Position numbers and translations under genes: made by a program
In this document: piece after piece, positions 48,516 through 57,217 of the stretch
Numbering within the stretch: the first letter of the stretch is position 1
Layout: every line of letters starts with the position of its first letter
Origin: an uncultured delta proteobacterium
Lineage (GTDB): Bacteria; Myxococcota; Myxococcia; Myxococcales; Myxococcaceae
Reading direction: 5' to 3'
NCBI GenBank assembly: GCA_963776345.1
Contig: CAVZMH010000015.1
Span: forward strand, 558,837 to 622,836
Length of the DNA: 64,000 bases
The notes under the pieces: generated by a model
Told to the model about the DNA's origin: nothing
Databases searched by the model: none
The model's input: the letters and a program-made list of their open reading frames with translations, nothing else

Positions 48516-48589
48516 GCGCGATTAGCTCAGATGGATAGAGCGTTGGCCTCCGGAGCCAAAGGCCACTGGTTCGAATCCAGTATCGCGCG
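48516..48589 (+). tRNA. tRNA-Arg(CCG), CCA not encoded; contains attL
   Basis: Acceptor GCGCGAT/ATCGCGC, D arm GCTC/GAGC, anticodon arm TTGGC-CTCCGGA-GCCAA, T arm ACTGG-TTCGAAT-CCAGT. Confidence 0.97.
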
Positions 48590-49976
48590 CTCTGAAGTCC
48601 CCGATTTCTCCTGAGGATTTTTTTCGAGGAGTCGGGGACTTCGTCGTTTTCGTACCGTCCGGGTGGATCTTCCACTTTTCTTCCACCTGCGGGGCGAGTT
48701 TCGAAAGGTCGAGCGGCATCCGGTTGACCTGCGCGCGGAGCCAGCGCGGGTCCACCGCGGTGTAGACCTTCTCGGTCATCTCCGTCGTCGCGTGGCGGAG
48801 CAGCTTGCTCGCGGCGAGGACGGGCGTTCCGCCCTGCTGCAGGAGGCTCGCGCACGTCACGCGCAAGTCGTGAAAGCGCACCGGCCGCACCTGGGCCTTG
48901 GGCCAGAGCAAGACGTGGTGGATGGGACACCAGCGAGGCTGGCGGTCCGCGGCGAACTCGGTGTGGAGACACCCCCGTTTGCGGCAGCGGTGCAGCCAGC
49001 CCGTCACGAGTCCGGCCCGGGCCATCGCCCGTCTCAGCACGTCCGCGAGCCTCGTGGACCTGGACATCATCTGCCCGTGGCCGGGGCATCCCTTGGGCTG
49101 AGTCCGACAACTGGCCACGCAGAGGTGGGGGAAGACGAGGGCCGAGGGGGAGGAGTCCATGGCTTGCTGGAGCCAGGGGACGGCCGCGTCCGGAATCGGC
49201 AGCTCGACTTCGTCGCCGCTCTTGGTGCCGTCTTGCGCCCACGAGCGGCGGAGGACCAGCGTCTTGTGCACGAGGTCGACGTCCTGTTTCCGGAGGCCCG
49301 CCCCCTCTCCTTTGCGCAGCCCCATGAGGACCGAGACGACGAAGAGCGGCCGGCGGTGGGCTGGAATCTGAGCCACCACGGCCGGCACCTCCTCGGCCCG
49401 GAGGAACTCCTTCACCCGCTTCGGGCTCTTCTGTCGGCCTCCCCCGCGGGACTTCCTGAGGTGCGCGACGGGGTTCGTGTGCCAGCGCTCGTCCTGCACC
49501 GCGGCCTCGAACGCGGCCGAGAGCCGGTGTCGGATGTGCTTCACCGTCTGACGGGAGAGCGGCTGCCCACGGACGGAGTCTTCGCGCTCCTTTCCGCGCA
49601 GGAAGCGCTCGAGGACGGCTGGCGTCACCTGGTCGAGCCGCAGCTGCGCGAGTTCCGCAACGAGGATGTGCTTTCGGACGACGCTGACGTTCTGCTTGTG
49701 CGAGCGCTGGGCGTGGGACATCTCCTCCAGCCACCACTCCATCAGCGCGCCAAGCGTCCCGCCGCCATCGGGCCTGGGGGCCGGCAGGAGTCCCTTCCTG
49801 ATCCGCTCGGCAGCGTCGGCGGCCTCGCGCTCCCAGAGAACGGCCTGCTCCCGGGCGAGCGCCTTGGTCTTCTGTCCGGAGTCGCGCTCGACGGGCCTGT
49901 TCTCGAGCGCATCGAAGTACCGGACCCAGTAGGTCCCGGATTTGATGCTCTTCTTCGTTCGCAGAACGGTGGCCAC
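48522..49976 (-). CDS. int: Tyrosine integrase, integrated (short-tail) form, reading antisense through the tRNA
   Basis: GLRKGE, TKSG, FHDLR, LLRH, KVY catalytic motifs; Cys/His insert; ends ARDTGFEPVAFGSGGQRSIHLS. Confidence 0.95.
   Translation of the reverse strand: MATVLRTKKSIKSGTYWVRYFDALENRPVERDSGQKTKALAREQAVLWEREAADAAERIRKGLLPAPRPDGGGTLGALMEWWLEEMSHAQRSHKQNVSVVRKHILVAELAQLRLDQVTPAVLERFLRGKEREDSVRGQPLSRQTVKHIRHRLSAAFEAAVQDERWHTNPVAHLRKSRGGGRQKSPKRVKEFLRAEEVPAVVAQIPAHRRPLFVVSVLMGLRKGEGAGLRKQDVDLVHKTLVLRRSWAQDGTKSGDEVELPIPDAAVPWLQQAMDSSPSALVFPHLCVASCRTQPKGCPGHGQMMSRSTRLADVLRRAMARAGLVTGWLHRCRKRGCLHTEFAADRQPRWCPIHHVLLWPKAQVRPVRFHDLRVTCASLLQQGGTPVLAASKLLRHATTEMTEKVYTAVDPRWLRAQVNRMPLDLSKLAPQVEEKWKIHPDGTKTTKSPTPRKKSSGEIGDFRARDTGFEPVAFGSGGQRSIHLS
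48594..48650 (+). terminator. Hairpin terminator downstream of the tRNA (inside int, antisense)
   Basis: GAAGTCCCCGA / TCGGGGACTTC 11-bp stem followed by GTCGTTTT. Confidence 0.7.
48668..48686 (+). promoter_or_regulatory. Putative integrase arm-type sites (left arm)
   Basis: TCTTCCAC twice with 11-bp period; same motif at 57013. Confidence 0.65.
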
Positions 49977-50004
49977 GGCCCAGCCCCTCTCTCGCCGCAG
50001 GACT

Positions 50005-50265
50005 CTAGCTCGGCGGGCTGCTCCGTCTCAGGCCGCGGACGGCTCCCTCCACCCGCGTCTGTTCCAGCCAGGCACGGATTTCCTGGGGGCTGAACCGCAC
50101 GGCGCCACCCAGCCGGTAGTGCGGCAGCTCGTTGCGGGCGATGCGCTCGTAGAGCCACGTTCTGCGCATCCGGGTGAACGCCAGGACGTCGGCCACGGTC
50201 CAGAGCGGTTCGGGGGTGGGTTGGTCGTCTGTGGGGCTCACTCGGGACGTCTCCACCCCTCCCAT
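50005..50265 (-). CDS. Excisionase-like HTH protein upstream of int
   Basis: LWTVADV..WLY..LPHYRLGGAVRF..IRAWL (HTH_17-like). Confidence 0.85.
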   Translation of the reverse strand: MGGVETSRVSPTDDQPTPEPLWTVADVLAFTRMRRTWLYERIARNELPHYRLGGAVRFSPQEIRAWLEQTRVEGAVRGLRRSSPPS

Positions 50266-50701
50266 GGCGTCGTTGTCAGCAGACAGAGTCCTAAGTGGAT
50301 TCTATTTGGCTCCTCTTCTCAAACCGGACGCCTTGAGAACGGCCGCGGAACCGTGAACCCGCGAACGGGGCTCCTCCGGAGCCACAGTCCCGCCGGACCC
50401 CACGGAGGAGTGACGACCCGTCCAGATTCCGTCGGGTTAGTCCAGCCCGGTCCAGCCTGGACATGGCCCCATCCGACCCGCTACGGCACAAGCGAAGCAC
50501 ACGGTCTCCCGACCACGTGCCAGGGGGATTAGAGTCACCGAGAAATCGGAGCTGGTTCAGAGACCTGCTTCCTATCCCGTCCCGAGCCAGCTTAGAGCGA
50601 GTCCGGCTCCCACCGGTCTGGATTTCGTGGTGCAGGTCAGAACGATGACTGCTTCGTCAGGGCGACACGATCCGCAGGTGTCAGGACAACAAGTGCGCGC
50701 C

Positions 50702-55995: not shown

Positions 55996-56157
55996 GGCAT
56001 CTGCTCCACAACCGGAGAGGCCGTCATCCGGCTGAGGTCAGGTTGCACCGGCGATGCCGTGGCTAAAGTACTGGACTCATTGGATATCCATTCAATCCAG
56101 GTTGCTCGGGACGAGACGGTCCGAGGGTCTTTGTTGGCCGGCACGCAACGACGACCA

Positions 56158-56503
56158 ATGCTCAAGCGGACCTTCCAGACCGATGTCCTCACCTGGCCGC
56201 GCTGCGGGGGCACGCGCCGCGTGGTGGTCGTCGTCCTTCGTTCCGCCACCGTCCAGGCCATCCTCGAGCACAGCCGGCTTCCCTCCAGACCTCTCCCTCG
56301 GGCCCCGGCCACCTCCCCACCCCAGCTTGGCTTCTGGTGAGCGCCGTCCGAGGTTCGAGACTCACCCCCGCCTGACACCAGGCTCGGGACTGCTCCACCT
56401 TCGGCAGCCGTGAGCACCTCCCCGGGTGCCTCCTCGCACCGTCGCTCCGCCCCTCGCGGGCCGAAGCGATACGCCCCACCTGGTCCGCGGCTCGAAAACC
56501 CGG
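56158..56503 (+). mobile_element. IS91-family transposase C-terminal remnant and downstream region, copy B
   Basis: LKRTFQTDVLT(W)PRCGG.RRVV..QAILEH.RLP..P..APA..PPQL resembles the IS91/ISCR Tnp C-terminal zinc-ribbon region. Confidence 0.65.
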
Positions 56504-56801
56504 GGGAAGTGGCCCCTCGCCCGGTACGGCTCTCCCGAGCGTTCCTTGAATTGACATCCGCTATCTCACGGATCATCGCAGCTCCTTCCAGCCCGGACGC
56601 AAGACCGAGCCCGCGCGTGCCCTGTGGTTAGAGACAAGGGCGACGGAGTTTGACTGTTCGCCACGACCGCGGGCAGGGACACCTCGCTCCCGAGCGCGCA
56701 CGAGCAGGGGCTGGAGACTCACTCACTCAAGCGCAGCGGGCGCACCGGCTTCCTGGACAAGGACTTCGGCACCTGCGTCCTGGCCGGCCGCCGGCTTGTT
56801 C

Positions 56802-57176
56802 TTATCTTCGAATTCTAGGAGGGCCGGCCCTTCGGCTCTCGTTGGCCTGTCGATCGACCACGAACCGCTCGACGTCCTCCGGCCTGAGTCGAATGAAATT
56901 CAGCACGCGCCCATACGGCAGTAGCCCCCGACGACAGAGCGTCCGGATGGCGGAATGCGAGACGTTGAGTTGCCGTGCCGCCTCCGCGACGGTGAGCAGC
57001 GGTCGACCGAAATCTTCCACCAAATCTTCTACCAACGGCGCGGCACACCCCCCCTCTGGAGGCGGTACGGGACGGACGCCACCCCCCTCCCCGCTCGTCG
57101 CAACCGCGCAGGATTCGGGTGAATCCGGCACTTCTCGGCATGCGTCCGATTCCAGCGGAAGTGGAGTGAGGCCTTC
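56802..57176 (-). CDS. Orphaned integrase C-terminal tail (124 aa, HTH_17-like), rejoined to int on excision
   Basis: Same codon phase as int at the att core (FGSG|EGLTPLP...); LLTVAEAARQLNVS..IRTLCRRGLL..IRL..DVERF. Confidence 0.8.
   Translation of the reverse strand, partial: EGLTPLPLESDACREVPDSPESCAVATSGEGGGVRPVPPPEGGCAAPLVEDLVEDFGRPLLTVAEAARQLNVSHSAIRTLCRRGLLPYGRVLNFIRLRPEDVERFVVDRQANESRRAGPPRIRR
57013..57032 (+). promoter_or_regulatory. Putative integrase arm-type sites (right arm)
   Basis: TCTTCCAC (57013) and TCTTCTAC (57025). Confidence 0.65.
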
Positions 57177-57217
57177 TCCGGAGCCAAAGGTCGTGGGTTC
57201 GACTCCCTCATCGCGCG
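57176..57217 (+). other. attR: displaced 3' half of tRNA-Arg
   Basis: CTCCGGAGCCAAAGG-TC-GTGGG-TTCGACT-CCCTC-ATCGCGCG; no 5' half upstream. Confidence 0.9.

Follow-up and report, generated by a model that had tools for sequence, protein, structure and literature searches.

In phage Mx8, attP lies within the integrase gene, int, and integration gives this gene a new 3′ end and changes the activity of its product, according to the accessible part of a review (PMC6070905). The Mx8 Int reads antisense through the 3′ piece of a tRNA-Asp gene, an HTH_17 excisionase (Uoi/Xis) is encoded upstream of int, and the tail that is swapped contains no HTH_17 domain, so that an HTH is not needed for such a switch in general. 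The accessible part of the genome note on a second phage, Mx9 (PMC10281127), makes no mention of an HTH, and neither of the two ORFs immediately 5′ of its int was found to be an HTH_17 gene. In the Mx9 Int itself, however, the tRNA piece inside int stands just ahead of a C-terminal HTH_17 domain (residues 489-537, E 3.5e-11), and integration would therefore strip the HTH from the protein.

Integration interrupts the int gene of SSV, with loss of catalysis. The archaeal integrases of this type have att in the coding sequence and the protein is altered upon integration (PMC5861418), and in the integration-dependent immunity of mycobacteriophages, as described in the accessible part of the source (PMC3694055), att is likewise within coding sequence and the repressor loses a degradation tag. 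In neither case is a DNA-binding domain swapped on a catalytically whole Int. Integrases of the lambda and Tn1549/Tn916 types share with the integrase described here, Int1, a common fold, arm-like repeats flanking the core and a free Xis; to our knowledge, att does not interrupt their int genes, and these enzymes bear no added Xis-like domain. Arm-binding integrases associate with Xis (PMC8138268, accessible part).

The island analyzed here is located in a window (the whole stretch of DNA under study) of 64,000 nt, and as judged from its sequence Int1 has the same design as the Mx9 Int, which is the closest phage Int to it among the matches listed (25 of 29, with Mx8 absent from these) at 32% identity. 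With this design in Mx9 and the swapped tail of Mx8, the switch is known in principle, while a search of the accessible literature found no mention of the Xis-like identity of the tail or of its spread through the phylum. A preliminary description of this DNA had named Mx8 as the precedent, and this stands for the attP site within int and the altered 3′ end, but the better precedent is Mx9 because the Mx8 tail lacks the HTH. Like Mx8, the island has an HTH_17 gene upstream of int and an Int whose frame crosses the 3′ piece of a tRNA gene in antisense orientation, and it differs in its tRNA (Arg) and in having HTH_17 in the tail. Mx9 is a phage that supplies the 5′ half of tRNA-Gly, whereas the island supplies the 3′ half of tRNA-Arg and is without virion genes by Pfam (five ORFs).

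The island at tRNA-Arg(CCG)

The island of 8,628 bp lies between two exact copies of a 15-bp core (Table 1), the spacing of which, 8628, is a multiple of three, and the chromosome retains the tRNA-Arg fold after in-silico excision. Int1 is a tyrosine integrase (PF00589) in which the R-K-H-R-H/W-Y set is present, the fold being taken from its relative P0011, and we take the catalytic residues to be R221, K252, H369, R372, H395 and Y405. The gene is intact and runs through attL, with the core 3′ of the catalytic Tyr (Y405 codon at 48764, core at codons 472-477), and the preliminary description was correct in that Int1 passes through the core as FGSG and ends eight residues later (FGSG-GQRSIHLS, then stop). 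It was also correct in placing a separate Xis-like gene upstream. The right part of an inverted repeat within int was among the terminator-type sites of a scan, where 3 were found versus 1.0 expected, a weak excess.

Table 1. Features of the island and of the adjoining element, with positions given within the window.
Feature	Position	Strand	Remarks
tRNA-Arg(CCG), target gene	48516..48590	+	attL: 5′ half host-derived, 3′ half island-derived
Int1, 484-aa tyrosine integrase	48522..49976	-	host tRNA 5′ half antisense supplies stop codon
att core, left copy	48548..48562	+	starts at first base of anticodon loop
Terminator-like inverted repeat	48594..48642	+	past tRNA, within int coding region
8-bp direct repeat pair, int side	48668..48686	.	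likely arm-type sites
Free Xis-like gene, 86 aa	50005..50265	-	HTH_17, E 5.5e-10; immediately upstream of int
Cargo: peptidase S41	50627..52156	+	Pfam
Cargo: Ser/Thr kinase (54121-54792) and beta-propeller-like ORF (52329-54176)	52329..54792	-	frames differ, ORFs overlap
Cargo: repeat-rich lipoprotein-like ORF	55072..55995	-	without Pfam match
Parked tail	56802..57175	-	59-codon linker, HTH_17 (56859-56999), stop
8-bp direct repeat pair, tail side	57013..57032	.	matches Int1 pair; one copy with one mismatch
Int2, C-terminal remnant, second element	57029..57784	-	Pfam match 57401-57535
In-frame TTG	57033..57035	-	G-rich Shine-Dalgarno-like run upstream; possible own start, 77-aa product
att core, right copy (57176-57190)	57176..57218	+	with displaced tRNA 3′ half of adjoining element

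Five ORFs between the att sites, the four main cargo ORFs and a short one, gave peptidase, kinase, propeller-like or no matches to Pfam and included no virion or packaging genes, so the island does not qualify as a prophage. A duplicated element of ~180 bp (54863-55046 and 56321-56503) brackets the lipoprotein-like ORF. The tRNA 3′ piece at the right core belongs to a second integrase element that is broken by insertion sequences (~57700-60340), and the site is thus a tandem array; by published definitions of tRNA-targeted genomic islands (PMC4383910), it is anticodon-centered and each member has a split tRNA fragment and its own integrase. Int2 was rejected as the owner of the tail because it is out of frame with it and its arm repeat matches another tail (G000:C13). 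No clean empty attB was recognized in 8 same-genus stretches, most of which contain an int or arm remnant.

At the right core the sequence continues in the phase of Int1 for 124 codons without a stop and contains an excisionase-type HTH, as had been claimed (HTH_17 at tail residues 60-106, E 6e-10, score 39.6 versus a cutoff of 27). Because the attachment site lies within int, the gene yields a 484-aa Int when integrated and, on the circle, would yield a 600-aa Int with a tethered HTH: joining the 15-bp cores in silico gave a 600-aa ORF with HTH_17 at its end, very close to the length first estimated, and the reconstituted attP therefore lengthens the C-terminus in frame in the manner of Mx8 and Mx9. 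The catalytic core is intact in both forms. In the AlphaFold model of P0011, a natural fusion, the core has pLDDT values mostly >90, residues 415-503 are <50 and the HTH is folded, and the HTH is predicted to hang on a disordered linker of ~100 aa.

Concordance of frame between tails and integrases

In 33 of the 36 Myxococcota-type islands that have an identifiable core, including this one, the reading frame of the parked HTH continues that of the island's integrase; in the other three it does not. The first set, 22 pairs examined with the window included, contained 19 core-bearing pairs, 17 of them in frame (class A, 9; B, 6; C, 2) with a permutation p of 8e-6 that treats kin as independent, and a second set from other genomes had 16 of 17 in frame (18 examined, two resolved by hand). 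Four pairs with no tRNA core were left out (G004:C20, G008:C27, G054:C57 and G185b). The concordance holds in each of the three antisense frames of the tRNA, while only 5 of 10 non-cognate tandem junctions are in phase. A chance open frame in GC-rich DNA was rejected as an explanation because the linkers are free of stops in the HTH frame in 19/19 cases versus 7/19 in each other frame. Element-specific repeats common to cognate arms have a mean length of 15.4 nt (versus 7.8 nt).

The tail might instead be a small separate gene for a directionality factor, initiated at a start codon of its own, and its in-frame junction with Int a coincidence or a leftover. This copy does have an in-frame TTG 12 codons ahead of the HTH with a duplex energy of −14.9, a value inflated by the G run, and a start codon with a Shine-Dalgarno sequence (SD) is found within 25 codons in 10/37 tails. 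That proportion is, however, the background one (12/49 and 80/287) and contrasts with 15/17 for Xis genes; two tails have no start codon at all within 60 codons, the frame follows that of the cognate Int in each of three frame classes, and full-length fusions exist, including that of Mx9. An independent gene is therefore highly improbable, and among homologues a start of the tail's own, which the preliminary description had held would speak against a fusion, is no commoner than background.

Full-length Int-HTH fusions were found in 5 of 65 homologues, in two of which (P0011 and P0063) the fusion is via the same tRNA-Arg peptide, and in 49 of the 150 best representatives. One is carried by a viral contig, L087, which together with Mx9 is the only instance in which the attP state was seen. 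P0011 alone as a query found no viral locus, and the tail alone matched nothing in phage records or, in a weak search, among longer proteins. Some natural fusions may represent tandem junctions rather than circles, and at the locus L219 another Int lies upstream; a search for terminal repeats in the 8 metagenome loci where the tail adjoins Int gave none. Clusters with Int and HTH_17 in other phyla were seen in the ESM Atlas and are a lead only; a Planctomycetota Int cluster has 42% HTH_17. The reading that excision would create the fusion, as proposed at the outset, is strongly supported by the frame concordance, the natural fusions and the lack of an excess of start codons. It was proposed for a small non-phage element, and while such an element is what is seen here, the switch is a family trait and not peculiar to it.

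Differences among 107 related tail pairs fall mainly on the third codon position (0.45, versus 0.17 and 0.14), which shows selection on tails at the protein level. Tail HTHs split from Xis HTHs with support of 98/93 (two rows are misplaced) and are a subfamily of their own, distinct from the upstream Xis; the Mx9 HTH has a higher score with the tail profile (56.6) than with that of Xis (43.9). The tail HTH of this island is divergent, with a branch length of 1.63, a conserved Tyr replaced and recognition-helix residues changed, and together with the mismatch in one arm repeat and the split cargo kinase this might mean that the family switch is real and this copy of the tail has decayed and no longer works. 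We regard such decay as unlikely, as the long open frame, an HTH_17 score well above the cutoff, a GC3 of 0.76 within the HTH and the intact Int and Xis argue against it.

A proposed role for the tethered HTH

We think it probable, if well short of certain, that the tethered Xis-family HTH of the circle Int promotes integration and that the short Int excises when Xis is made, a putative role in directionality of the kind that the preliminary description had proposed. Once the element is circular or has entered a new cell, its tethered HTH would bind attP arm DNA near the core, where it might help to assemble the integrative complex and/or fill sites that free Xis needs. Integration would then remove the HTH, as the antisense strand of the host tRNA supplies a stop eight codons past the core, and the short Int would excise only once the separate upstream Xis is made. 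That the long Int is the pro-integration form is likely given that it exists only at attP and that integration alters Int activity in Mx8, as the accessible part of that review states (PMC6070905).

Two other roles for a genuine fusion were considered. The HTH could act on transcription, with the long Int repressing the xis-int promoter or regulating circle genes and direction being affected indirectly. Consistent with this, the HTH profile matches 4J2N (phage Gp37), presumably an Xis, and 6AMA (a Streptomyces-type DNA-binding protein), which we take to be BldC, of a class that includes regulators, and the recognition helix is conserved even though arm repeats differ among elements. On the other hand, a repressor would not need the predicted ~100-aa tether to Int, which fits action near the core, and promoter scans, which covered sigma-70 only, returned 0 sites and nothing promoter-like near xis, which makes a transcriptional role unlikely. 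A search for an HTH target motif gave no conserved candidate and returned the tRNA T-loop alone. Alternatively, the tail could set not direction but the amount of Int or the upkeep of the circle: the short end derived from the tRNA would be a degradation signal absent from the long form, or the HTH would help to maintain the circle. Most short forms do end within ~10 residues of the core, and with small or hydrophobic residues, and mycobacteriophage repressors are known to have C-terminal tags that are switched at attP (PMC3694055, accessible part), but the short ends differ from one tRNA or frame to another, some running for at least 40 residues, and a role in stability needs no selected DNA-binding fold. 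Control of amount or upkeep is thus very unlikely.

The pro-integration role of the HTH may extend to Myxococcota integrases throughout the phylum. They would have a built-in, pro-integration counterpart of Xis, a dedicated HTH subfamily that is made only as long as attP is whole, can be joined via antisense tRNA in any of three frames and is lost by the enzyme's own reaction, and tandem arrays would regain a long Int via a neighbor's tail if the frames match. We regard this wider proposal as evenly balanced. If it is true, borrowing of tails in frame-matched arrays would give the arrays a means of adjusting how they grow, and directionality would be controlled via the gain or loss of a domain and not by a diffusible factor. 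The fusion explains the HTH_17 ORFs without start codons that adjoin tRNA fragments, and the tail-type HTH, present in 36/151 genomes of the phylum, marks the distal end of such islands. Such control would bear on how integration vectors for myxobacteria are designed, and the findings suggest a role for the swapped C-terminus of myxophage-type integrases, one that is testable in the laboratory phage Mx9, the Int of which ends in an excisionase-like HTH.

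The tRNA-Arg(CCG) island and its two predicted integrase forms

The island is bounded by a 15-bp exact core that begins at the anticodon loop and recurs 8,628 bp away, and its integrase, Int1, has the usual catalytic residues, positioned before the core. The preliminary description held that Int1, on crossing the left core, stops 8 codons on, in sequence antisense to the tRNA 5′ half, that the same frame stays open for 124 codons from the right core and contains an excisionase-type HTH domain (the tail), and that circularization would yield an Int-HTH of ~600 aa. All of this was borne out. 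The HTH matches HTH_17, the circle joined in silico encodes 600 aa in frame, and the site emptied by scripted excision still reads as tRNA-Arg. Also as described, a separate Xis-like gene (86 aa, HTH_17) lies upstream of int, and the element appears to be non-phage, with no phage gene found by Pfam in its cargo. The closest named relatives of Int1 are from Myxococcaceae, which makes a host in the Myxococcota likely.

The Cys/His insertion in the catalytic domain of Int1, which is near-invariant across 46 homologues and visible also in phage Mx9, is probably metal-binding, and Int1 has a second Cys-rich insert. The ~180-bp element on both sides of a cargo gene, its copies about 80% alike, has further copies on several contigs, and an adjoining peptide, which had no Pfam match, presumably resembles the end of an IS91-type transposase.

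Features of the locus (window positions)
Feature	Position	Strand	Remarks
Serine hydrolase, beta-lactamase family	46533-48422	plus	629 aa; just outside attL
tRNA-Arg(CCG)	48516-48590		sole tRNA found in window
Int1	48522-49976	minus	484 aa, PF00589
8-bp repeat pair, left	48668/48679
Int1 Cys/His insertion	48900-49110	minus	residues ~290-355; C331, C336, C350
Cargo			peptidase, split kinase/propeller, repeat protein
~180-bp element	54863-55046, 56321-56503
HTH_17 tail	56802-57175	minus	would be joined to Int1 on circle
8-bp repeat pair, right	57013/57025
Int2	57029-57784		catalytic end of another integrase; right of second core, cut by transposase genes
Transposon	57711-60337		one element interrupted by another's transposase, truncating Int2

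Frame concordance and natural fusions

In a first set, each integrase was paired with a tail-like HTH lying 5′ of int on the same strand of the same contig, and three pairs from the window's own genome (G000) were added. A tRNA-derived core was found in 19 of these 22 pairs, and 17 of the 19, including the window, join in frame through a stop-free linker. The antisense tRNA is read by the integrases in each of its three frames (9, 6, and 2 cases), with the tail matching in every instance, and permutation gives p = 8e-6 for this, a value that overstates the case because relatives are not independent. Both failures look decayed, one being frameshifted relative to an in-frame twin in G007 and the other containing stops. 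The second set, 18 pairs from other genomes, provided 15 automatic cores (14 in frame), two further pairs in frame by hand, and one pair lacking a core, so that 33/36 pairs with a core are in frame (31/34 without the hand cases) among 40 examined. Adjacent Int-tail junctions are in phase in only 5/10 cases. In the HTH frame 19/19 linkers contain no stop, vs 7/19 in each other frame, and shared arm words are longer in cognate than in non-cognate pairs (15.4 vs 7.8 nt). Tail-type HTHs occur in 36 of the phylum's 151 genomes. The feature is real and family-wide, and its anatomy is well supported; that the window copy has itself decayed, a question separate from the family mechanism, is rather doubtful. 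At one locus (L205/L193, G131:C13), Int passes in sense orientation through the 3′ half of a tRNA-Pro, with the tail still in frame.

HTH_17 is present in 5/65 Int1 homologues, two of which read through the same tRNA-Arg peptide. Of the 150 representatives that best match a fusion profile, 49 are Int-linker-HTH proteins (linker 97-177 aa), which is not a frequency because the profile favors fusions; the tRNA-antisense peptide was recognized by pattern in 30 of the 49. The AlphaFold model of natural fusion P0011 has a confident Int, disordered residues 415-503, and a folded HTH, and its fold matches Tn1549 Int and lambda Int. Among 80 viral loci the fused form occurs once, mid-contig on a 40-kb contig. 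By script count, 80 metagenome loci gave 83 cases: 54 with Int beside a full tRNA, four fused, four junctions without read-through, and 21 at contig ends, without motif, or other; no terminal repeats were found in the eight metagenome loci bearing a tail. Where the contig resembles a chromosome, fusions may represent junctions within an array. In L046 (G017:C1:~8992000-8993340), just ~25 aa, without any tRNA piece, separate Int from the tail HTH to which it is fused, possibly as the result of deletion between arm repeats. Two viral-contig Ints of this family (L086:11100-12100, L088:11400-11800) end before the tRNA piece, hence not all members use the switch.

Ownership and possible independence of the tail

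The locus is a tandem array. Int2 was ruled out as the owner of the tail, since the two read the core in different frames and the Int2 arm repeat matches instead another tail, at G000:C13. This, together with the same pair of 8-bp repeats on both sides of the island, assigns the tail to Int1. The matching arm repeat belongs to an attP-like tRNA-Arg fragment (G000:C13:~30800-31180; tail, core, and degenerate tRNA 3′ half), inverted within a tRNA-Gly island. Between them, G000:C13 (1390-33500) and G000:C3 (8950-9600, 217150-217270) hold a tRNA-Gly tandem array of the same design, a remnant of an Int joined in frame with a tail, and a further tRNA-Arg core at a contig end. The transposon truncating Int2 we take, from Pfam domains, to be IS3-like with an IS30-like transposase inside. 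In eight same-genus stretches (L311-L318), the tRNA-Arg(CCG) 3′ half varies, and what comes after it is in most cases a remnant of int or of an arm, which suggests an integration hotspot.

Within 25 codons, a start codon accompanied by an SD-like duplex is found in 3/19 (first set) and 7/18 (second set) tails, close to control windows (12/49 and 80/287) and therefore at background, vs 15/17 xis genes, and two tails lack any start codon over 60 codons. The window tail is among the positives, with a TTG at 57035 from which a separate 77-aa product may also be made. Tail HTHs show protein-level selection and split from Xis HTHs in a 50-column tree (support 98/93), the L087 tail and the free HTH_17 gene of Mx8, Uoi, falling on the opposite side; the window tail, on a long branch, scores 55.4 with the tail profile vs 31.8 with the Xis profile. 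That the tail is a separate gene is very improbable.

Known switches and the proposed role of the tail

The long form of Mx8 Int reportedly integrates better, and its C-terminal segment is reportedly dispensable for excision, according to the title of a cited work. Mx8 Int contains a 3′ piece of tRNA-Asp and lacks HTH_17. Mx9 Int, the closest phage Int to Int1 among the best 25 of 29 phage matches, is 548 aa long, carries the 5′ half of tRNA-Gly in antisense (nt 1395-1429), and has a C-terminal HTH_17. According to a review, Mx8 attP is located within int, integration giving a new 3′ end and modified activity, and Mx9 runs on a similar principle (PMC6070905); Islander accommodates Mx8- and SSV-type overlap (PMC4383910). 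Literature searches and the available portions of these two and of PMC8138268, PMC5861418, PMC11610982, PMC10111431, PMC3694055, PMC10281127, and bioRxiv 10.64898/2026.09.14.751636 contain no description of an HTH tail, which does not establish its absence from print. The attP-in-int switch is known, and the present feature is a variant of it.

As encoded, DNA state is predicted to set two Int forms, the selected Xis-like domain being confined to the attP form. Because the long form can arise only at a stage where integration comes next, its HTH most likely helps that reaction, and we consider it reasonably probable that the short form plus Xis carries out excision. The tethered HTH would bind the arms or bend DNA, or would block free Xis. 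Transcriptional control by the HTH is unlikely, and a role of the tail in stability or upkeep is quite improbable. Mx9 offers a ready test case for the HTH-tail switch.
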